From positions 32,001 through 96,000 of the IMG/VR virus record IMGVR_UViG_3300030102_007626: a stretch of 64,000 nt of DNA; one strand, 5' to 3'. The notes beneath the pieces were generated by a model, which ran no database searches, was not told the origin of the DNA, and worked only from the letters and a program-made list of their open reading frames with translations. This DNA is from a virus. How positions within the stretch are numbered: position 1 is the first letter of the stretch; each line of letters opens with the position of its first letter. Of the stretch, positions 9,725-64,000 are shown piece after piece. The position numbers and the translations under genes are program-made.

Positions 9725-9820
9725 ATGAGACATGATGATTGGATAACAAGATTGTATTATAATCTAGATATTTCGCACTTGCCTATAGAGTCCTCTTATT
9801 TTACTTATATTTATAATTAA
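9725..9820 (+). CDS. Small ORF, 31 aa (MRHDDWITRLYY...)
   Basis: Hand-translated; AGTTATG start context right after the nrdJ stop. Confidence 0.4.
   Translation: MRHDDWITRLYYNLDISHLPIESSYFTYIYN
9807..9816 (+). promoter_or_regulatory. Putative late-promoter motif ATATTTATAA
   Basis: Same motif precedes several leader-bearing genes. Confidence 0.5.
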
Positions 9821-9829
9821 ATTGTCTAA

Positions 9830-10342
9830 ATGCTTAAATTGAAAGATATATTACTTGAAGTATTACAAGATATAACTCCTCAATTTCAAAACATATCTAA
9901 ATATAACGGTACCCCTCTTGATACTATGTATGATTTTGGAGGATCAGATTATGTTAGTGTTAATCCTGAAAGTAAGGGTATTAAAAATATAATAGTAGTA
10001 GACATAGTAGACCCTTATATAGAGGATTTTGAAGATAAAAATATCTATTTTATTAAAAAAAATTTATTTGTTCCTGTTAATTTACCAACACAAGCTAAAG
10101 AAATCCAAGCTAATAAACTAATAAGATATGCAGGCAATAAAGAAGATATTATTATAGATAATATAGATAAACACCTTATAAAAGGAGGGATTCTTCGTAT
10201 TTTTGAAGACTCAGATGAAGATGATAATTATGATTCATTAATGTTAAGAATAATAGAAAAATTTAAATTAAAAGGGTATAGTGTTATTAAAATTGATGGT
10301 ATTAACTATGGAGATGTAGAATTAGCTATTTTAAAAAAATAA
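9830..10342 (+). CDS. Hypothetical protein with MLKLKDILLE leader
   Basis: Leader resembles those of 30988 and 56726. Confidence 0.6.
   Translation: MLKLKDILLEVLQDITPQFQNISKYNGTPLDTMYDFGGSDYVSVNPESKGIKNIIVVDIVDPYIEDFEDKNIYFIKKNLFVPVNLPTQAKEIQANKLIRYAGNKEDIIIDNIDKHLIKGGILRIFEDSDEDDNYDSLMLRIIEKFKLKGYSVIKIDGINYGDVELAILKK

Positions 10343-27618: not shown

Positions 27619-27622
<4 letters not shown>
27266..27622 (+). CDS. Hypothetical protein with N-terminal KRGRP
   Basis: 118 aa; coupled to groES. Confidence 0.65.
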
Positions 27623-29559
<1,937 letters not shown>

Positions 29560-29560
<1 letters not shown>

Positions 29561-29823
29561 TGCAGACAGAAAAAGTAGAGTATAATGAACTTATCGCAAC
29601 ACGAGTACCTCCTGGAGACCAGTGGGTGCTTGTGGGAGATAAGAAAAAAATTGTTCATAAAACAATAACTGATGCTTTAGAAGCATGGTTTGATAAAAAC
29701 CAAGAACAAGTTGAGTTTCGTTTAGCACCTCTAGATAGTAAACTCTATGTAATAAGAAGTGAGGAAAAAGAAATTATTCCTGAACCAACTAAAAGATACA
29801 ATATTTACGGGGACCCACTATAA
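29560..29823 (+). CDS. Hypothetical protein
   Basis: TAATG coupling to groEL. Confidence 0.65.
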
Positions 29824-29840: not shown

Positions 29841-29850
29841 ATATTTATAA
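29841..29850 (+). promoter_or_regulatory. Putative late-promoter motif ATATTTATAA
   Basis: Directly after the terminator, before the leader-bearing gene cluster. Confidence 0.55.
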
Positions 29851-29861
29851 CAAATAATTAA

Positions 29862-30713
29862 GTGGATAATTTTGATTTGAGAAAATATTTAGCTGAAAAT
29901 ATACTGTTTAAAGAAGATACTAGTGATAAAACTGCTATATTAATAGATGGTACATCATCTGCAGGAAAATCAATGGCTGCTTCATTATTAAAGGCTGTTC
30001 CTTTTTATAAAACAACAGATAAAAATCAATGGGTTCAAATAGATAGCGATATGTTTCAGGGGTTTGATAACGAAGCAGAAGAAAGAAGGTTAAAATTAGA
30101 CCATCCTAACATAAGGGATTGGGCTAAAGGTAATGAAGTGGGGATGACTTCGGGAATGTATAGAAAAGATGGTGTTGAGGATATACCAGAAAATCCTTAT
30201 GAAACAGAAAGACCATATAAAGGCGGAGACATTAGAGCTTGGTATATGGCTCAAGAATATAAAGTAGGTGGTTGGAAAAAAGTTATCTTTGATGACGTAT
30301 CTGATGATATATTAAAATATGTCCCTAATGTAAAACACGTATTATTGCATGCCCCTATTGAAATTTTGCTCCAAAACATACAAGCAAGGAAAGAAAAAGA
30401 CCCTAGAAAAATTGACATGGTGTTAGATCAATATTTAGAAAAATATAAAGCTACCCCTTCCAAACCAGATGAAAATGTAGGAGATCCAAATACCCCTTTA
30501 ACAAAAGAAGGATTAACAAAATTATTATCTCAACACACAACTGATCAAGAATATATTGATAAATTTATCAAAGAATTAGGGATTACTGGAGATGGTACTT
30601 ATTATATTAAAGCTAAAAATATAGATCCAAATAAAACAATAATAGTAAATGTAGATAAAGAGTCAAGAGCAGCAAATGTTCCTCCTGCTAAATTACAACA
30701 AATTTTTAAATAA
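29862..30713 (+). CDS. Leader (DNFDLRKYLAEN) plus P-loop kinase, chloramphenicol-phosphotransferase-like
   Basis: GTG start; ILIDGTSSAGKS Walker A, VIFDDV, LLHAP..LLQNIQAR. Confidence 0.65.
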   Translation: MDNFDLRKYLAENILFKEDTSDKTAILIDGTSSAGKSMAASLLKAVPFYKTTDKNQWVQIDSDMFQGFDNEAEERRLKLDHPNIRDWAKGNEVGMTSGMYRKDGVEDIPENPYETERPYKGGDIRAWYMAQEYKVGGWKKVIFDDVSDDILKYVPNVKHVLLHAPIEILLQNIQARKEKDPRKIDMVLDQYLEKYKATPSKPDENVGDPNTPLTKEGLTKLLSQHTTDQEYIDKFIKELGITGDGTYYIKAKNIDPNKTIIVNVDKESRAANVPPAKLQQIFK

Positions 30714-30727
30714 AAAAATAAAATAAT

Positions 30728-30991
30728 ATGGACAATTTTAATCTAAAAAAATACTTAGCTGAAAATAAACTTGACGAACCGTATATAGGTCAATTTGAAA
30801 GTAGAGCAGCAGAAAACTTAGCAAGAGCTCAAGCAAAATTTTCAAATGCTATTCTTGCTCTTAGATCAGACAATATTCGTACAGCAGAAGAAGCAGAAAA
30901 CGCATACTTAGCAATAGCTTACCATTTAAAAACTCATTTTAAAGAAAAATATCCTGATTATAGACCACACCCAACTATTGCCCAAATATGA
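30728..30991 (+). CDS. Leader-bearing hypothetical protein
   Basis: MDNFNLKKYLAENKLDE. Confidence 0.65.
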   Translation: MDNFNLKKYLAENKLDEPYIGQFESRAAENLARAQAKFSNAILALRSDNIRTAEEAENAYLAIAYHLKTHFKEKYPDYRPHPTIAQI

Positions 30992-31998
30992 AACTAATAG
31001 ACATTTTAAGAGAGGTAGAGGGTGAAGAAGATGGGATGAAGCAACTTAAGGTTCAATACGACCTTGCTATTCAACCTACAGATATACCAGCTGCATTAAA
31101 CGCTTTAGATAATATAGACAACTATGGTATCTATGCTCAAAACCTACGTGACCCAAAAGTTATAGATAAAATATTTGGTTTTTCTAATCCTGGTAAAAAA
31201 ACAGTCCAAGCTCAAACCGAATGGAATGAGATGACACCTGAAAAAAGGTTAAAAAAGATAGATCAAATAAAAAATGATAGGATTATAAAAGATCGTGAAG
31301 GGAATATTGTAAAAGATCTTGGAAAAGAAACTTGGAATAACACATTAAAACTTCTTGAAAAATATAAACCTTATCAAGAATGGGTAGAAGAAAATGGAGA
31401 TAATCCTGAAGAATATTTATCATCTTTAGATGGGGTAACAGCTGGCAGTTCAAAAGGTTTAAAATTGTTTGGAAGTAGAGCAGAAACATACTTTCCATTT
31501 AGATCCCCAGAAAACATGAAAAAGTACGCTGGTAGATTAGAAAAAGATGTCCATTTTATGGTAAAAGATGGTAAAATTGTTTTTCCATTAGAAAACAGCC
31601 CTTATAAACCAAAAGCATACTTACAAAAAGTAATGAAAACAATAATGGATAACTCAGGTTTAGAGTATGAAATTGTTGATGTTGAAAAAACAGATGATAA
31701 AGGAGAAGTAATTAAAAAACCTGAAAAAAAGGTAACACCACCTTTATCTGTAACAGCAGATACTTTAGATAAAGTTGAAAAAATTAGAAGCCAATTTCAA
31801 AAAGAAATTGGAGATGTTCCAACAGCAAACTACACAACTGAACCAGTTGAGGTAGATGGTAAAAGAAAATATAAACTAGTTGTAACAGGTATTTCACCTG
31901 ATCAAAGACAAAAATTATTAATTAAAAAAGCGTCATTAAAAGAAGGTGTAGAATTTGATTTAGATCTATATTTAATGCAAAAAAGAGCAGGATTATGA
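30988..31998 (+). CDS. Leader-bearing hypothetical protein
   Basis: MKLIDILRE N-terminus; C-terminal LMQKRAGL. Confidence 0.65.
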   Translation: MKLIDILREVEGEEDGMKQLKVQYDLAIQPTDIPAALNALDNIDNYGIYAQNLRDPKVIDKIFGFSNPGKKTVQAQTEWNEMTPEKRLKKIDQIKNDRIIKDREGNIVKDLGKETWNNTLKLLEKYKPYQEWVEENGDNPEEYLSSLDGVTAGSSKGLKLFGSRAETYFPFRSPENMKKYAGRLEKDVHFMVKDGKIVFPLENSPYKPKAYLQKVMKTIMDNSGLEYEIVDVEKTDDKGEVIKKPEKKVTPPLSVTADTLDKVEKIRSQFQKEIGDVPTANYTTEPVEVDGKRKYKLVVTGISPDQRQKLLIKKASLKEGVEFDLDLYLMQKRAGL

Positions 31999-32732
31999 AA
32001 GAATTTGACTTAAAAAAATACTTAGCTGAAAATAAGCTATTAGATGAAGTTAGATATTTAGAAGGTAAAGCAGTCACCCAAGATGAATTACATAACATCA
32101 TAGGTAAAAAAATGGAAGAACAGGGCTACCAAAGAGTGGGTTTTGGGAACACCAGTTACCGAGATTATGTTAAAGAAGTAAGAGATGAAGATGGAAATTT
32201 ATATTACTTTAATATATCTGTACTAGTCTCTTCAACAATTGAAACTGATTATCATGGTGAAATTACTTTTGAACTTAGAGTTGCAAGAGATAAAAAAGGT
32301 TTAAAAGCATTATTTTCTAGAGAAAAAAGAGAAATGATTAAGTCTTTAGCAACAAATAAAGATATAACAAGAGGTATAAATTTTGATGGGTCTTATAATA
32401 AAATTCGAAAAGCAGTCTTATTAAGAACTCCTTCTACAATTAAATCTTTAGAAGATAAAGCATTAAGAAAAATTAATAGAGCAGCTGATCCATTAAATTT
32501 AGAAGAACAAGAAACAGAAATCTTCAAACCTGGAATATACAGAGTACTAAAATATAGTATAGATCGTTATGAATACTATGGAGATTTTCTTGAACTTACC
32601 AGAGAAGCAACTTTAGAAGAAATACGAGCGGTTATTGGAAAAGAAATGGGTCTACCAGAAAGTGCTTATTGGGTAATCGACTTGGGTGATACTGTATCAA
32701 AAAATGACTTACCAACAATATATAAATTATAA
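31995..32732 (+). CDS. Leader-bearing hypothetical protein
   Basis: MKEFDLKKYLAENKLLDE. Confidence 0.65.
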   Translation: MKEFDLKKYLAENKLLDEVRYLEGKAVTQDELHNIIGKKMEEQGYQRVGFGNTSYRDYVKEVRDEDGNLYYFNISVLVSSTIETDYHGEITFELRVARDKKGLKALFSREKREMIKSLATNKDITRGINFDGSYNKIRKAVLLRTPSTIKSLEDKALRKINRAADPLNLEEQETEIFKPGIYRVLKYSIDRYEYYGDFLELTREATLEEIRAVIGKEMGLPESAYWVIDLGDTVSKNDLPTIYKL

Positions 32733-32791
32733 GTTTAATTAAAATGAAAGAATTTGACTTAAAAAAATACTTAGCTGAAAACAAGCTATTA
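31995..32791 (+). repeat. 48-nt direct repeat (31995-32042 and 32744-32791) encoding the leader
   Basis: 47/48 identical by eye. Confidence 0.85.
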
Positions 32792-33334
32792 AACGAACAA
32801 TCTAAAAACCACCCACTAACAGATTTATTAAAAATCCATTTTCAAGTAGCATATGAAAAGGGATTAGAAGCACAACCTGAAGATGATTATGATTCTTTTG
32901 ATGAAAAATATTGGAAAAATAATGCATTTGAAATTGATACTACAATAAGAAGATTCCAACAAAAATCAGATGATGATTTACGCGATACTTACAATCAATA
33001 TGGCTCTTTTAAAGAAGAAGTTAATGAAGGGTATGAACAAGAACAATCTAAACTAACCTCATCACTAATGAGGTGGATTCAGTATTCTATGGATAACGGG
33101 GATAGTAAAGAAGAAGTACTTGCTACACTAGAGAGGCTTGGAGAAAGAATTATAAATAAACTTCCTTTAGCTGAAAATAAACTATTAAATGAATCAATTG
33201 AACTTACTCCTATAGAGAGAAGAAAATTAATTTATTTTCTAGAAATGAAGGTTGAAGAAATGCAAAATAAGGGGGATAATTTCTTTTCTGATGAGATAGG
33301 AATTTTTAACAGTATTTTAAATAAAATAAGATGA
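32744..33334 (+). CDS. Leader-bearing hypothetical protein with an internal leader copy
   Basis: MKEFDLKKYLAENKLLNE; internal LAENKLLNE. Confidence 0.65.
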   Translation: MKEFDLKKYLAENKLLNEQSKNHPLTDLLKIHFQVAYEKGLEAQPEDDYDSFDEKYWKNNAFEIDTTIRRFQQKSDDDLRDTYNQYGSFKEEVNEGYEQEQSKLTSSLMRWIQYSMDNGDSKEEVLATLERLGERIINKLPLAENKLLNESIELTPIERRKLIYFLEMKVEEMQNKGDNFFSDEIGIFNSILNKIR

Positions 33335-33537
33335 AACACTCACAACTAAAACAACTTATTAAAGAAGAAATACGTAGCGCAATTAATGAAAATGGTGGTT
33401 GGGACTATGACTTAATGGAACAGATAGTAGAGGATGTTGAACAATTAGATAGTGAAATTGGAAAATATGATGATGATTACATTTTATATACGATTAATAG
33501 TATTATAGATCAACTAAATAAATTAAAAAATAAATAA
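33331..33537 (+). CDS. Leader-bearing small protein
   Basis: MKHSQLKQLIKEEIRSAINE. Confidence 0.6.
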   Translation: MKHSQLKQLIKEEIRSAINENGGWDYDLMEQIVEDVEQLDSEIGKYDDDYILYTINSIIDQLNKLKNK

Positions 33538-33540
33538 AAC

Positions 33541-33570
33541 TTGCCTATTGGTAAAAGTTTTTGTATAATT
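33541..33570 (+). promoter_or_regulatory. Promoter (TTGC-N19-TATAAT)
   Basis: Conserved spacing. Confidence 0.55.
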
Positions 33571-33588
33571 AAGTTATAAAAATAAGTT

Positions 33589-34512
33589 ATGAAAGACAAC
33601 ACTTTGTTGGTTGAAAAATACCGTCCTACTGTTTTACAAGATTATGTAGGAAATGAACAAGTTAAAGAGACAATTCAAAAATATCTTGACCAAAACGACA
33701 TCCAAAACTTTATATTCTATGGACCTGCTGGAACTGGTAAAACAACACTAGCTAAACTTATAGTTAAAAATCTAGATTGTGATTACCTTTACATTAATGC
33801 AAGTGATGAAAATGGAATTGATACAATCAGAGAAAAAGTAAAAGGATTTGCTTCTGCTGCTTCTTGGAATGGTATAAAAGTAGTTATTTTAGATGAAGCA
33901 GATTTTATCACTATAAATGGACAAGCAGCACTTAGAAATGTAATTGAAACATTTTCTCGTTCAACTCGCTTTATATTAACGTGTAATTTTATTGAGAGAA
34001 TAATTGATCCAATACAATCACGTTGTCAAGTACTTAAAATTCGACCACCATCCAAACTTACTATAGCACACCATTTAGCAGATATAATGGGGAAAGAAAA
34101 TATTTCACATGATGTTAAAGAAGTAGCTACTATAGTAAATAAAAACTATCCTGATGTTAGAAAAATGTTGAATACAATTCAACTATCTACTGTTGATGGA
34201 GGACAAAATGATTTATACCTTAAAATAGATGAATCAGTTCTAGCTTCAAACAACTATACTAAAGAGGTACTAAAAGAACTTACCCAAACAAAAAATTGGA
34301 TTAAAATAAGACAAATTATAGCAGATAGTGGTGTAAAAGACTTTGAAGAATTATACCGCTTACTCTTTGAACATATTTCAGTATATGCTAAAGATAAGGA
34401 AGGATCAGTAACTATAATACTAAATGAACATCTTTTTCAAGCAAATTTCCGAATTGATAAAGAGATTAATATAATGTCGGCAATAGCCAAAATAATAGAA
34501 ACAATTAAATAA
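33589..34512 (+). CDS. Clamp loader AAA+ subunit (RFC/gp44-like)
   Basis: VEKYRP, GPAGTGKT, INASDE, ILDEAD, QSRC. Confidence 0.92.
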   Translation: MKDNTLLVEKYRPTVLQDYVGNEQVKETIQKYLDQNDIQNFIFYGPAGTGKTTLAKLIVKNLDCDYLYINASDENGIDTIREKVKGFASAASWNGIKVVILDEADFITINGQAALRNVIETFSRSTRFILTCNFIERIIDPIQSRCQVLKIRPPSKLTIAHHLADIMGKENISHDVKEVATIVNKNYPDVRKMLNTIQLSTVDGGQNDLYLKIDESVLASNNYTKEVLKELTQTKNWIKIRQIIADSGVKDFEELYRLLFEHISVYAKDKEGSVTIILNEHLFQANFRIDKEINIMSAIAKIIETIK

Positions 34513-34522
34513 ATAATAAATA

Positions 34523-34777
34523 ATGCAAAATCAAGCACCCCCACAACAACCAAACATTGACCTAACAAACACTACAGCAGTAGAAGGATTCGATGGAGGT
34601 AAATTATTTGGACAAGCGGTAGTAATCCGTAAAGTATCTAAATTTGTAACAGGAACAGATGAAGATATGCTTATGCCTATTCCTGTATTTTATGATCTAG
34701 AATCAAAGAAAATTCTAAAAGATTCTATTCCACCTGAAATTAGGGAAGAATATAAAGATATGACTATTGAAGACTAA
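34523..34777 (+). CDS. Hypothetical protein
   Basis: 84 aa within the operon. Confidence 0.6.
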   Translation: MQNQAPPQQPNIDLTNTTAVEGFDGGKLFGQAVVIRKVSKFVTGTDEDMLMPIPVFYDLESKKILKDSIPPEIREEYKDMTIED

Positions 34778-35201
34778 AAAGCAAATAAAAAATATATGGG
34801 GGTGGTTAAACGAAATCACCCTATATAAAACACCTGCTGATTGTTTTACTGATGAATCATGGGATTGTTTTAATTCCTATATGATTCATCGGTTTGTATC
34901 TATGAATATAAATTACGTTGAGTTGACTAATTATGTTCAAACTATACCTTATGATAATAAAATACAGACCTATAATATTTATAGAGAAATGATCCCAAAA
35001 AAGAAGGTTTTTTTAAAGTATATAAAAAGTAAGAAAAAATCCCCTAATCCACAACTTGTAGAAATTTTAAGTGACTATTTTCAATGTGGTAAATTTACAG
35101 CTGCTAGATATTTAGAGGTAATGAAGAAAAAAGAAACATTAAATATACTTTCTACTATGGGTATTGATGAAAAAGAATCTAAAAAGTTATTAAAAGCATG
35201 A
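34767..35201 (+). CDS. Putative clamp loader small subunit (gp62-like)
   Basis: FNSYMIHRFVSM, IPKKKVFLKYIK; near the gp44-like gene; start codon uncertain. Confidence 0.55.
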   Translation: MKTKKQIKNIWGWLNEITLYKTPADCFTDESWDCFNSYMIHRFVSMNINYVELTNYVQTIPYDNKIQTYNIYREMIPKKKVFLKYIKSKKKSPNPQLVEILSDYFQCGKFTAARYLEVMKKKETLNILSTMGIDEKESKKLLKA

Positions 35202-35446
35202 CAAAAAATAGAGAAATATGGGGGACACCCACACCATATCAAACTCGTACAATTGAACAAACAGATTCAGTAGTTGATTCAATTATTGATCAATTTGTTG
35301 AAAGAGCCAAATTCGGCAAAGAAAAATATAATACAGATTTAGATAGAGAAGATTTAGGTTTATTAGATTGGATAGAGCATGCTAAACAAGAACATATGGA
35401 TGCTATACTTTATCTTGAAAAAATTGAAAGAACAATAAAGGGTTAA
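35198..35446 (+). CDS. Small all-alpha NTP pyrophosphohydrolase-like protein
   Basis: RAKFGKEKYNTDL...HAKQEHMDAILYLEK. Confidence 0.45.
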   Translation: MTKNREIWGTPTPYQTRTIEQTDSVVDSIIDQFVERAKFGKEKYNTDLDREDLGLLDWIEHAKQEHMDAILYLEKIERTIKG

Positions 35447-35455
35447 TATTTATAA
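35446..35455 (+). promoter_or_regulatory. Putative late-promoter motif ATATTTATAA
   Basis: 15 nt before a leader-bearing gene. Confidence 0.55.
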
Positions 35456-35469
35456 TAAAATATCATAAA

Positions 35470-36627
35470 ATGTCAGATGAATTAAAACGAATGCAAGAAT
35501 TAGCAGGAGTATCTATTAACGAAGTTGCAGATTTTGGATCAGAAGGATTTAAATGGATTGATTCACACTCCGCACCTTATTTTCCTGCATATCAAGGATT
35601 TAATAATGTATCAGATATTCCTAATAAAATTAGGGCATATTGGGATGAAATTAAAAGAGAACCAAAACAATATGATAAAAGAGATTGGGGTTTTTATATA
35701 GGAGATACTATACCTACCTATTTTAAAAATGCTTATATGATGCTAGCAAATCAAATATCTTCTCCTGAAAGAAGAGAATATCTTTTAAAAGGCCCTACAG
35801 ACCCATATCAAGAAGAACAAATTAAAAAAGCGAGTAATGGTAAAATTGGAGATGGAAAAAAAGCATTTGATTTTCTTAAATCTATTCCTGATAACTATTC
35901 TTTTAATAATGACAGTAAATTCAATTCTAAATATTTAGGAAATGATTCTAGATTTGCAGCAATTAATAGTTCATTTCAAAAACTATTCAATGAATATGCT
36001 TCGGGACCAAGTTATCTTTTAACCCCTATGATAATTCCTTATATAATGCAACAATTTAATGATATAATTTGGGATAATAGATCAGGTGTAAAAGCTAGTT
36101 TTGATAGAAGAGAAAAAATGAAACAAGATGATACCGTTCCTAGATTAGAAGAAAATAAAATAAATAAAATGAACACAGAATTAAAACGAATGCAAGAACT
36201 AGCAGGAGTACCTGTTAATGAAGAAAAAGAATCACTTAATGAACACCAAATTGGTGGTGTTGTAGGAATTGGAGCAATTCATACTCCTAAAAAAGAAAAA
36301 TCAGATTATGAAATGGCTTTTGAGCATTTTATGAATGAAGAAATGGATCCAATTACGGGAACAGATATAGATAATATTGAAATTTCTTCACCACCTGATT
36401 TTGGAGATGATGAAATTACAGGAACTTCACTTGAAGAAGAAGAAGCTGTTGAGGTAGAAAAATTAAAAAATTATTTAGAAGGAATGGGTAAAAGTGCTTT
36501 ATCCCAAATAAACAAAAAAGAAGAACTTAAAAATGTATTTATAGCTATAAAAAATGGAATGGGTAAAAATTTACAAAAAGATCCAGCTGTTATTAAAGGA
36601 TTTGAATTAATAATGGCTAGATTATAA
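35470..36627 (+). CDS. Hypothetical protein with two ELKRMQELAGV modules
   Basis: Motif at the N-terminus and again after the internal Met at 36169. Confidence 0.7.
   Translation: MSDELKRMQELAGVSINEVADFGSEGFKWIDSHSAPYFPAYQGFNNVSDIPNKIRAYWDEIKREPKQYDKRDWGFYIGDTIPTYFKNAYMMLANQISSPERREYLLKGPTDPYQEEQIKKASNGKIGDGKKAFDFLKSIPDNYSFNNDSKFNSKYLGNDSRFAAINSSFQKLFNEYASGPSYLLTPMIIPYIMQQFNDIIWDNRSGVKASFDRREKMKQDDTVPRLEENKINKMNTELKRMQELAGVPVNEEKESLNEHQIGGVVGIGAIHTPKKEKSDYEMAFEHFMNEEMDPITGTDIDNIEISSPPDFGDDEITGTSLEEEEAVEVEKLKNYLEGMGKSALSQINKKEELKNVFIAIKNGMGKNLQKDPAVIKGFELIMARL
35479..36210 (+). repeat. 33-nt direct repeat (35479-35511 and 36178-36210)
   Basis: GAATTAAAACGAATGCAAGAA(T/C)TAGCAGGAGTA, 32/33 identical. 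Confidence 0.85.
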
Positions 36628-36639
36628 TAATTTTTCCTA

Positions 36640-36876
36640 ATGAGAAACCCAAAAGACATAGTTAAATTAGACGTTCCTTTACTTCTTCGTATACTAGAAT
36701 TTGCTAAAGAAGATGCTGCATCTGATGATGAACTTCATAAAATAGCAAGTAACATAGTTGAATTAAGTAGGATTGGAGGTACATTAGGAATGATGGATTA
36801 TGAAGCTATAATGGGTAGTGAAGAGCAATTAGCTGAAAGAAAATTAATGATGGTGAGAGCCGGAATTTTAAAATAA
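36640..36876 (+). CDS. Small protein with C-terminal LMMVRAGILK
   Basis: Tail resembles the RMQELAG and LMQKRAGL motifs. Confidence 0.65.
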   Translation: MRNPKDIVKLDVPLLLRILEFAKEDAASDDELHKIASNIVELSRIGGTLGMMDYEAIMGSEEQLAERKLMMVRAGILK

Positions 36877-36958: not shown

Positions 36959-36984
36959 AAGCTTGGCCTAGCCAAGCTTTTTTT
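36959..36984 (+). terminator. Intrinsic terminator overlapping the next promoter
   Basis: AAGCTTGGC-CTA-GCCAAGCTT plus T tract; TTGG at 36963 and TATCAT at 36986. Confidence 0.75.
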
Positions 36985-56417: not shown

Positions 56418-56729
56418 ATGTACATTATTGGAATATCCCTTATAGGATTGCCATTTTTAATCAGAGCAATTCAATTTAGAAAATTTTTAAAAAGTATTAC
56501 TAAAGTATGTCATATTTATGATTGGAAACATGTTGATGAAAATGGTGATCTTTTATTAGAAATTATTAAAGATAATTATTGGGAAAAAGCAGAGTGGTCA
56601 GCTTATAATTTTTTATATTTAAAAGGTCCTAGCCCCTTCAAAATGTTTTTTTCATTTAAAGCTCTAGAATTAAAAAGTTTTTATGATGAAAAGATTATTG
56701 AAAAAGTAAGAAAAAAGGTAGTAAAATGA
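56418..56729 (+). CDS. Membrane-anchored hypothetical protein
   Basis: N-terminal TM segment. Confidence 0.55.
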   Translation: MYIIGISLIGLPFLIRAIQFRKFLKSITKVCHIYDWKHVDENGDLLLEIIKDNYWEKAEWSAYNFLYLKGPSPFKMFFSFKALELKSFYDEKIIEKVRKKVVK

Positions 56730-57400
56730 AATTATTAGAGATTTATCTTAAAGAGGTCTTGATAAATGAAGTATGGAGTGAAATAGAAGAGTCACTTCAA
56801 ATTGATGAAGCCATAACAGGTAAATTATCTTCACTGTTAAAACAAGCAGATAAACTTATATTTGAACCCTTTGGTATTACAAAAGATGACCATAAAAAAT
56901 ATCTAGTATCTGGGTCAGGTAGATTGTATTTATATCCTGCAATTAGAAAAGCATTTGAATTAACTGAACCAGGTGATTTAGATCTAGTAATTCCAGGAGA
57001 ACAAGAATGGGCTAACTTAAAAAAATATCTACAAAAAAATGGTACTTGGGAAAAATATAAATCAAATTATGAAAAAGGTATCTACAGACCTACAGGTGAA
57101 ATAGAGGCATTTAAAGATTGGAATCCACCAGGGGTAAGTGTTGCTTCAACAGATCAAATATTAGCAAATAGTAGTGTAGTAGATGGTTATAGCTTTATGA
57201 GTTTTAGAGATATAGTTGATTATAAAATTAAACTTTCTAGACCTAAAGAAGAAAAAATCACTAAACTACTTCTAAAATACAGAAATGAAACTACCCCAGA
57301 AGCTAAAGAAGAAATAATTAATGGGATTCTTAAATTAGTAGGAAAAGAAGATACAGAAGAAAATGAACAAGCAGTAAGAGATTTATTTGCTACTGATTAA
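56726..57400 (+). CDS. Leader plus nucleotidyltransferase-fold protein (putative)
   Basis: MKLLEIYLKEVLINE; VSGSGRL...PGDLDLVI; YKIKLSRPKE. Confidence 0.55.
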   Translation: MKLLEIYLKEVLINEVWSEIEESLQIDEAITGKLSSLLKQADKLIFEPFGITKDDHKKYLVSGSGRLYLYPAIRKAFELTEPGDLDLVIPGEQEWANLKKYLQKNGTWEKYKSNYEKGIYRPTGEIEAFKDWNPPGVSVASTDQILANSSVVDGYSFMSFRDIVDYKIKLSRPKEEKITKLLLKYRNETTPEAKEEIINGILKLVGKEDTEENEQAVRDLFATD

Positions 57401-63890: not shown

Positions 63891-64000
63891 ATGAAAAGGA
63901 AAAAAGATTATAAACAAAAAATTGTATTTCACTCAAATCGTTTACATGAAGGGTTAAACGCAGCACCGTCTGAGTATAATAGTGAAAATATAAAAAAATC
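63891..64000 (+). CDS. Partial ORF running off the window end
   Basis: AAGTTATG start after the promoter; open to the end. Confidence 0.5.
   Translation, partial: MKRKKDYKQKIVFHSNRLHEGLNAAPSEYNSENIKK

Follow-up and report, generated by a model that had tools for sequence, protein, structure and literature searches.

The window analysed here is a stretch of 64,000 nucleotides, bases 32001-96000 of a 155,669-bp IMG/VR virus record (IMGVR_UViG_3300030102_007626, estimated to be 96% complete) from an uncultured T4-like phage of marine origin, and it contains, above all between positions 29,841 and 36,876, a series of otherwise different proteins that begin with one of a few short conserved leader peptides, here called tags. 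These tags are probably capsid-targeting propeptides of the same kind as the capsid-targeting sequence (CTS) of phage T4, occurring in several families of which some appear to mimic the prohead scaffold, and the tagged proteins would accordingly be docked in the prohead, packaged, cleaved and injected. The case for this rests on the modular nature of the tags, the swapping of bodies behind them, a motif at the junction of tag and body, the identity of one tag with the terminus of the candidate scaffold protein, the presence of a gp21-type protease, and a regulatory motif held in common with structural genes. Positions refer to the window unless given as genome positions.

Four N-terminal tag families can be distinguished, each found on non-homologous bodies and with tags of 17-20 residues, namely T1 (consensus MxxFDLKKYLAEN), T2 (M(I)KLxDILxE), T3 (xELKRMQELAGV) and T4 (MKHSQLKQLIKEEI), the last being a family name that does not refer to phage T4. 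The T1 leaders stand at the exact N-terminus of the proteins encoded at 29862 (MDNFDLRKYLAEN, from a GTG start), 30728 (MDNFNLKKYLAEN) and 31995 and 32744 (both MKEFDLKKYLAEN), and these four, together with the internal LAENKLLNE, had been placed correctly by an earlier sequence-only reading of the window, as had the T3 leaders ELKRMQELAGV..NE at 35470 and 36169; the C-terminal tails LMQKRAGL and LMMVRAGILK, which it also listed, end the 30988 open reading frame (ORF) and the 36640 ORF. That reading also pointed to MKHSQLKQLIKEE at 33331, which is indeed present and proves to represent a fourth tag family. Its second leader type stands only in part, in that the starts at 30988 (MKLIDILRE) and, with a one-residue offset, 9830 (MLKLKDILLE) fit M(I)KLxDILKE, but the start at 56726 (MKLLEIYLKE) is a weak and doubtful member, fits the family only with a one-residue shift and does not have the motif ATATTTATAA, considered below, directly upstream.

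A six-frame scan of the whole 155.7-kb genome confines [KR]KYL[AS]EN to the four T1 starts, and LAEN[KI]L has a single further occurrence, the internal one. KRMQELAG occurs twice, both times inside the 35470 ORF (at its start and at the internal Met at 36169), and the five six-frame occurrences of M[QM]x[LR]AG are the two T3 copies, the ends of the 30988 and 36640 ORFs and the end of the scaffold candidate. When the N-terminal 18-mers of 214 ORFs were compared all against all, T1 pairs scored 49-79 (BLOSUM62; null maximum 32), and the comparison furthermore recovered two diverged T1 genes outside the window (genome 137166 and 140226) and about seven genes of the MKHSQLKQLIKEE type. The window proteins stripped of their leaders are mutually unrelated (best E 0.14). 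Paralogy as the source of the shared leaders was considered and is ruled out by this lack of similarity between the bodies.

The tags are widespread in IMG/VR. A degenerate DNA pattern for FDLKKYLAEN has 98 matches in 82 IMG/VR stretches, nearly all with an ATG exactly three codons 5' of the Phe, and conservation extends past the search pattern, to M-[DKE]-[ND] on its N-terminal and to [KR]-L-[LTN]-[KE]-E on its C-terminal side, the 99 T1-tagged proteins falling into 52 BLAST body clusters. The T2 pattern MIKLxDILKE has at least 134 matches on at least 52 body clusters, the T4-tag pattern LKQLIKEEI at least 128 matches on at least 68 body clusters, with 116 N-terminal among the matches listed, and KRMQELAG of T3 has 77, mostly 3-13 residues from the start and in a few cases at the very C-terminus. 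Across 87 distinct T1 leader DNAs the choice among synonymous codons for Phe, Tyr, Asn and Asp is roughly as variable as in the genome background while the amino acids are fixed, which indicates that the peptide itself is under selection; two codon positions, AAG and CTA at +10 and +11, are oddly biased.

Orthologous bodies exchange their tags. The body of the 29862 protein has 410 homologues with at least six different tags, and the best 120 of these all share ..K(T/I)AILIDGTSSAGKS after tags that differ, these being T2 in 53 proteins, a T3-like tag (..RIKxxMGLLTE) in 28, T1 in 21, a KLKRQLI tag (MGRIEKLKRQLINEANIRVLTE) in nine, the T4 tag in four, a KTFDEFVNE tag (MRIKTFDEFVNE) in two and some other tag in two, with one protein untagged. 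A quick maximum-likelihood tree of the kinase-like bodies requires at least 19 tag changes, and some sister sequences differ in tag. A second family, characterised by CPxxTQDLELNTKNRD and represented in this genome by the copy at genome 140226, swaps tags as well, and has T1 and a KLKRQLI-like tag in common with the kinase family. This copy (genome 140226-140669, L089:10226-10669) lies outside the window and encodes a T1-tagged protein of 147 residues with the motif CPxxTQDLELNTKNRDxxIKAxYIxYGPL; the family has 2,107 homologues in the protein database, some of its clusters having from hundreds to more than 1,600 members, and although it corresponds to no Pfam family it is a candidate for one of the most abundant cargo proteins.

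The body of the 29862 protein is predicted to have a fold of the P-loop nucleoside or nucleoside monophosphate kinase type. Its Pfam matches (AAA_18, dNK) are weak, and the nearest folds in the PDB are nucleoside and nucleoside monophosphate kinases, with weak matches to TmrD, uridine-cytidine kinase and adenylate kinase. In the AlphaFold2 model, calculated with 50 kinase homologues (predicted local distance difference test, pLDDT, 86.9), residues 1-19 are below 50 and form a loose helix at 6-16, and the fold begins at residue 24. The model of the 30988 protein (pLDDT 71.7) likewise has residues 1-22 below 50, with a short helix at 4-9, and ends in a helix at 325-333 that follows a low-confidence linker at 320-323; it has no fold match in the PDB. 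In both models the tags lie outside the predicted folds, and the tagged proteins are not paralogues; full-length paralogues with the leader as part of a common folded domain are one of the outcomes that the sequence-only reading had named as speaking against it. Apart from the weak kinase matches, Pfam and PHROGs return almost nothing for the tagged bodies.

The junction between tag and body is marked by a glutamate motif. In most members of the kinase family the last [LIVFM]xE is found 3-5 residues before the first beta-strand, and this is true for all six tag types of the family, some T2 members having a nearer copy at 0-1 residues from the strand. Of 78 distinct T1 proteins, 70 have an [LIV]xE no more than 7 residues beyond the tag core, and the corresponding count for T3 is 26 of 36, whereas same-size windows of the bodies give a background of 8-9%. 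The agreement of the junction across unrelated tag families is a stronger point than these enrichment counts. The C-terminal tails follow a mirrored rule, with a conserved [LIV]xE 11-17 residues upstream of each: the junction (marked by a slash) reads ..PIVE/SNEVFARMQKLAGIIK in the scaffold candidate, ..SLKE/GVEFDLDLYLMQKRAGL in the 30988 family and ..QLAE/RKLMMVRAGILK in the 36640 family, and an alignment of 19 homologues of the 30988 protein shows no change at M330, A334 and G335 and hardly any at K318 and E319. The description of all these proteins as rich in (L/I)xE, as given by the sequence-only reading, is wrong as worded: the motif sits at the junction of tag and body and the bodies are if anything poor in it, a depletion that speaks for capsid targeting.

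The prohead protease gp21 of T4 cleaves after L/I-x-E (PMC9026906), and a gp21-like protease, which the sequence-only reading had asked for, is encoded in the head module of this genome, the tags ending in a motif of the type that it would recognise. The genome, which has about 29% G+C and nearly all genes on one strand, opens with a T4-type head module consisting of a charged ORF, the S77 protease, an acidic protein of 547 residues and a capsid protein of the Gp23 family. The protease starts with MNKELLIET, the counterpart in T4 gp21 being MNEPQLLIET, and a candidate maturation site of the capsid protein is LVTE61/A62, by comparison with FLTE65/A66 of T4, the BLAST alignment to T4 gp23 being ambiguous at this point. 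Each of the seven tag-bearing genomes with a completeness of 90% or more has an S77 protease, as do 2 of the 13 other large contigs tested, which are fragments estimated to be 29-77% complete, and among these genomes and contigs no counter-example to the co-occurrence was seen.

A link to the prohead is provided by the acidic protein, which we regard as the probable scaffold from its gene position, acidic composition and conservation. Its C-terminus reads ..RMQKLAGIIK*, i.e. ..FARMQKLAGIIK, the last residues being ..EVFARMQKLAGIIK, and ..RMQKLAGII(K) is kept in seven related complete genomes as well as in Flavobacterium phage vB_FspM_immuto. The same motif is found in T3 (KRMQELAGV) and in the C-terminal tails (MQKRAGL and MVRAGILK). 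In IMG/VR 120 ORFs end in MQKLAGIIK*, and in 108 cases the next 2.2 kb contain a gp23-like gene, 8 being unassessable and 4 being other proteins; judged by sequence, T3 thus represents the terminal peptide of the scaffold transferred to the N-terminus of other proteins. In one relative (G006) two T3 genes (MSKQFITEAKRMQKLAGIIAE.. and MSKQFITESKRMQELAGIVDE..) and a gene with the T2-like start MIKLHDILKEA lie between the protease and scaffold genes. The tail of the 36640 protein is conserved across 12 homologues, and in L117 a homologous body (55% identity, E 2e-25) lacks the tail and instead stands behind an N-terminal T3 tag. In G007 the same domain is furthermore part of a head-module protein of 241 residues whose gene is the second one upstream of the protease gene (E 2e-17), and no homology was found between the 36640 protein and the head-module gene of the present genome itself. 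In one homologue of the 30988 protein (L158) the tail reads ..RMQKLAGIITESE and is followed by 35 further residues. The N-terminus of the scaffold candidate (MATNRDLLKEAIADAK) resembles T2 (..DILKEA..), a match that is short and was noticed post hoc.

A corresponding resemblance exists in T4 itself, where the CTS (..QEFIAE) and the N-terminus of the scaffold protein gp22 (MLKEQLIAE) look alike. In addition, T4 gp22 (L170:6118-6927) has a segment KEWLAENKLAV that agrees over 7 residues with the T1 core (K)YLAENKL(L), and no segment of this kind is present in the scaffold of the studied phage. These resemblances to gp22 could be due to chance, or they could hint that CTS tags generally mimic scaffold helices.

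Among cultured phages immuto (MW353175.1, host Flavobacterium sp. LMO8) is the nearest, with a capsid protein 58.6% identical to that of the studied phage and the order groES, groEL, PD-(D/E)XK nuclease and glycosyltransferases in common with it. Diverged T1, T2, T3 and T4 tags are present on nine of its genes (immuto26A_3, _40, _157, _179, _188, _189, _191, _194 and _195), two of which lie shortly before the terminase and portal genes, and its version of T1 reads KKFLVEN, so the KYLAEN pattern does not match it; no cultured phage with the exact tags was found by tblastn. The product of immuto26A_204 (L091:4725-5966) is called a 'DNA polymerase phi-like protein' in GenBank, and its position, composition and C-terminus show it to be a prohead scaffold, while immuto26A_194, annotated as a cob(I)alamin adenosyltransferase, has a T1 tag. 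The stretch itself is found in marine metagenomes. No match turned up among 50,697 annotated phage records when these were searched at the DNA and protein level for the region, its tags, the kinase or the 30988 protein, and a search of the literature found no paper on the motif strings, nor any linking a CTS to marine phages.

The motif ATATTTATAA connects the tagged genes with structural genes. The sequence-only reading had noted it just before 9830, 29862 and 35470, and it is found 12-15 nt upstream of all three, i.e. before the T2 gene, the head of the array with T1, T2 and T4 tags, and the T3 gene. On the + strand of the genome it has 23 copies, 22 of which lie 0-30 nt upstream of a gene start (4% expected), and its reverse complement occurs once. 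Copies precede both sheath genes, the tube gene and an adaptor-like gene (identified by Pfam and PHROGs), and also the tagged genes at genome 137166, 21826, 116738, 142178 and 148758. Its count in the window alone (5 against 3.0 expected) is not above chance, and the motif derives its meaning from its position and the genes that follow. In IMG/VR, T1 and T3 genes are about 2.7-fold enriched for it. A different motif of early type, TT(C/T)GTATATTA..TATAATTA, precedes about 35 small ORFs at genome 90-107 kb as well as the clamp-loader gene at 33589; no copy of it stands before the tagged groups of this genome, and in IMG/VR it seldom precedes tagged genes. Since the tagged blocks have ATATTTATAA and the clamp loader has the early-type motif, the tagged genes appear as two late-type islands inside the replication module, and early expression, which would have counted against virion delivery, is not what the motifs point to. 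A scan for sigma-70 promoters performed no better than on shuffled sequence. Tagged genes are also contained in contigs of RNA (metatranscriptome) libraries, which establish presence only and not timing or transcript ends. At the first codon of the 29862 gene, 16 contigs of one marine RNA library and 9 of another read A, showing that relatives use ATG.

The array itself is hypervariable. In five relatives the flanking genes are about 90% identical at the protein level, whereas the interval between the ORF that follows groEL and the clamp loader contains 2 to 11 tagged genes in varied combinations. This ORF is conserved, has 87 residues and overlaps the stop codon of groEL (groES 27619-27921, groEL 27914-29560, the whole spanning 27619-29823), and the trio of groES, groEL and this ORF is kept immediately upstream of the cassette array in all relatives. 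The 32744 gene consists of two fused cassettes, body A stopping just before the T1 remnant in L056, and in L077 the remnant with body B is instead placed behind the N-terminal part of a T4-tagged protein. L077 likewise has the C-terminal module of the 31995 protein (residues 172-245) free-standing behind a T1 tag of its own. The 33331 tag (MKHSQLKQLIKEEIRSAINE) is found on eight different bodies in the syntenic arrays of L077, L056 and L078. The 35470 gene is also a fusion, tag 2 having its own Met and an upstream stretch that resembles that of tag 1 in a DNA alignment, and only the second cassette is present, as a separate gene, in L076 and L073. The fusion and deletion breakpoints of 32744, 31995 and 35470 all fall inside tags, RNA-library contigs show joints leading from the ATATTTATAA promoter-like motif directly to 30728 or 30988, and many different RNA-library contigs match the tag alone. 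The shared tags double as recombination handles: because every cassette starts with the same approximately 50 nt, cargo genes can be swapped, fused and lost quickly.

According to the capsid-targeting reading, the tagged proteins would be made late, alongside the virion proteins, and a short amphipathic tag, either T1, T2, T3 or T4 at the N-terminus or a ..M(Q)x(R/L)AG(I)(I)(K) tail at the C-terminus, would dock each of them onto the assembling prohead core. T3 and the C-terminal tails would do so by imitating the conserved C-terminal peptide of the scaffold, and T2 perhaps by imitating its N-terminus. The gp21-type protease would then cut after [LIV]xE between tag and body, and the freed body would stay inside the head and leave it with the DNA. 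That several address tags load a payload into the head had already been proposed by the sequence-only reading, and modular tags, protease and scaffold mimicry agree with this, but in sequence the tags are unlike the CTS of T4, and the bodies are neutral to acidic. A more far-reaching version, which we put forward tentatively as a possibility only, is that the tags constitute a combinatorial address code derived from mimicry of scaffold interaction peptides, with T3 and the tails representing the C-terminus and T2 the N-terminal DLLKEAI helix. Any protein could in this way enter the prohead core by either of its ends, singly or within a polyprotein of fused cassettes that the protease resolves, and different tags might set the copy number or the position of the cargo.

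A number of observations weigh against capsid targeting. The bodies are neutral to acidic, with net charges of 0 to -14, unlike the basic internal proteins of T4, and about 18 tagged genes in one 155-kb genome make up a large cargo list. T1 to T4 do not resemble MKTYQEFIAE of the T4 CTS, the rare KTFDEFVNE of the kinase family being the exception, and the scaffold candidate has no BLAST similarity to T4 gp22. The motif [LIV]xE is short and easily produced by helices rich in K, E and L, and its enrichment overstates the independent support, as tags within a family share ancestry, while the depletion of [LI]xE in the leader-stripped bodies (434 observed against 492 expected by shuffling, a ratio of 0.88, with control ORFs at 1.25) is not significant for this genome alone. 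ATATTTATAA is called a late promoter only by association with the genes downstream, and in IMG/VR the T2 and T4-tag genes, which come from more diverse phages, are not enriched for it. Finally, no virion proteome was found for immuto, the cultured phage that bears tags.

This last point also counts for the notion that the tags dock late proteins on some other hub, such as a chaperonin, a membrane assembly site or a replication or packaging factory, the Glu motif being simply part of an amphipathic helix. The tags are indeed generic helices rich in K, E and L, the main array directly follows groES and groEL within replication genes, and non-basic bodies pose no difficulty here, but we consider this explanation rather unlikely, since it explains neither why T3 and the tails equal the C-terminus of the scaffold nor why G006 has T3 and T2 genes between those for protease and scaffold, and it leaves unaccounted for the fixed spacing of 3-5 residues between [LIV]xE and fold across unrelated tag families, and the co-occurrence with the S77 protease together with the motif shared with structural genes. 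Alternatively, the tags may load the prohead, with the proteins being accessory parts of the core or scaffold that are later degraded or expelled instead of delivered. T4 gp67 and gp68 are core proteins of this sort (PMC9026906), T3 and the tails copy the scaffold terminus, the 36640 domain is part of a head-module protein in G007, and the 30988 family is kept in every relative as expected for a structural gene. Most bodies are however hypervariable between phages whose flanks are about 90% identical, which is the pattern of cargo in an arms race, at least one body has a predicted enzyme fold (the P-loop kinase), and the bodies tend to avoid [LI]xE whereas core proteins get cut up, so this explanation is unlikely as well.

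It is also conceivable that the common starts are boundaries at the DNA level, either recombination handles or a translation-initiation module, and that the peptide is without function. The nearly identical leader DNA within the window (31995 and 32744, for example), the breakpoints inside tags and the biased AAG and CTA codons agree with this notion, which is nonetheless made very improbable by the facts that the synonymous codons of the four amino acids mentioned vary as the background does behind a fixed peptide, that several unrelated tag families obey one grammar, that the same motif is used at either terminus, and that tags persist in immuto in spite of the distance between the capsid proteins. 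It is more plausible that recombination follows from the shared tags than that the tags exist for its sake.

The most economical interpretation is that the system works like the T4 CTS system without being its sequence relative. The CTS on the internal proteins of T4 was reportedly described by Mullaney and Black in 1996. In T4 it is a peptide of 10-20 residues carried by the internal proteins IPI, IPII and IPIII and by Alt and removed by the prohead protease gp21, Alt losing both N-terminal and C-terminal pieces (PMC9026906, PMC3012670, PMC5694885). We verified MKTYQEFIAE in ipII and ipIII, the two genes being identical at 30 of 30 nt. Both systems have a short N-terminal peptide, a propeptide in T4 and a putative one here, that ends in L/I-x-E on unrelated proteins, a gp21-family protease, polymorphic cargo loci and neighbouring genes with identical leader DNA. 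The present system differs by having at least four to six unrelated tag families and not one, tags of 17-20 residues as opposed to 10, neutral to acidic bodies, about 18 clients per genome, and a tag family that also occurs at the C-terminus and equals the scaffold terminus, and it is known only from sequence. That the enzyme Alt is loaded by a CTS as well indicates that the mechanism can do without a basic body.

The C-terminal tails, with the L/I-x-E that precedes them, are furthermore reminiscent of the C-terminal propeptide of Alt, which is cut at LTE-619, and of gp21 processing in general (PMC5694885, PMC9026906), but in the present case the extension is a conserved motif of 8-10 residues in common with the scaffold. 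In phiKZ and SPN3US many head proteins, ejection proteins among them, are likewise processed after Glu by a gp21-related protease and include paralogues with identical N-termini (PMC5694885, PMC7411985). The propeptides of these jumbo phages are however mostly longer than 100 residues and belong to paralogous families, whereas those described here are short, portable and attached to non-homologous bodies. What is new is that one tag equals the scaffold terminus and is equivalent at the N- and C-terminus, that tags are swapped within two large families of orthologues, that the spacing at the junction is constant, that a motif is held in common with structural genes, and that a cultured test case exists. 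Short terminal addresses into an HK97-fold shell, on either end of the cargo, are also known from the coat-binding peptides of P22-type scaffolds and the cargo-loading peptides of encapsulins, with which the present tags have no sequence relationship, and ..RMQKLAGIIK may bind the capsid protein. The mobile promoter-early-stem-loop (PeSL) cassettes of the hyperplastic regions of T4-type phages shuffle small ORFs by repeated short sequences at gene boundaries, but those repeats are non-coding and early, unlike the present one, which is coding, conserved at the protein level and tied to a late-type motif.

If the capsid-targeting reading is correct, the combination of tag, [LIV]xE and late-type motif is a rule that picks out the virion-carried and probably injected proteins of very abundant ocean phages, which would give hundreds of ORFan families a function by location and indicate where anti-defence effectors are likely to be found. 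The CTS principle of T4 would then be old and diversified into several tag families, and an origin of the CTS by copying of the scaffold's own docking peptide would be suggested. Should even the address code prove true, a large share of the small ORFans in the abundant marine T4-like phages of Bacteroidota would encode pre-made injected proteins, enzymes included.

Table 1. Tagged genes, flanking elements and head-module genes (window positions unless marked as genome)
Feature	Position	Strand	Remarks
ATATTTATAA and gene with T2-like tag MLKLKDILLEV, 170-residue body	9807..10342 (motif 9807-9816, gene 9830-10342)	+	no Pfam family
ATATTTATAA	29841..29850	+	late/structural promoter-like motif heading the operon of T1/T2/T4-tag cassettes
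T1 tag, P-loop kinase-like body	29862..30713, tag 29862-29915	+	GTG start
T1 tag, 87-residue body	30728..30991, tag 30728-30778	+	body in 6-member IMG/VR cluster
T2 tag (MKLIDILRE), conserved 336-residue body	30988..31998, tag 30988-31014	+	
Scaffold-like C-terminal tail LYLMQKRAGL of 30988 protein	31966-31995	+	SLKE just before
T1 tag, two-module body	31995..32732, tag 31995-32048	+	
T1 tag, body A, internal T1 remnant LAENKLLNE, body B	32744..33334, tag 32744-32797, remnant 33167-33193	+	
T4-type tag MKHSQLKQLIKEEIRSAINE, 68-residue body	33331..33537, tag 33331-33390	+	
TTTGTATAAT, early/middle-type motif	33561..33569	+	ends cassette array, precedes clamp loader; outside tag system
Clamp-loader gene	33589-34512	+	AAA and Gp44_lid domains
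ATATTTATAA	35446..35455	+	heads T3 unit
Two fused T3-tagged cassettes	35470..36627	+	tag 1 35470-35523, tag 2 36169-36222
78-residue body, scaffold-like tail KLMMVRAGILK	36640..36876, tail 36841-36873	+	QLAE before tail
Terminator-like hairpin	36959..36979	+	9 bp stem, then T-run; closes T3 unit
Doubtful T2-like start MKLLEIYLKEV	56726..57400	+	no Pfam family
Peptidase_S77 (gp21) prohead protease	genome 1402-2034		PF03420, 87.6 bits
Scaffold candidate			547 residues, acidic; in scaffold position of head module
Major capsid protein, Gp23 family			PF07068, 251 bits

Two further features of the genome may be mentioned. From 58733 to the end of the window at 64000 and beyond it (genome 90.7-107 kb), about 35 small ORFs each have a near-identical element AATAAAATAATTAAT..TTCGTATATTATAGTATAATTA 15-35 nt upstream, which looks like a dense array of early-type promoters, and a run of 10 N inside one of these repeats (genome approximately 99584-99593) is an assembly gap in the record. 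At genome 17061-21186 (L085/L086) two adjoining sheath-like genes, encoding 696 and 662 residues with similar N- and C-termini, each stand behind a ATATTTATAA of their own.

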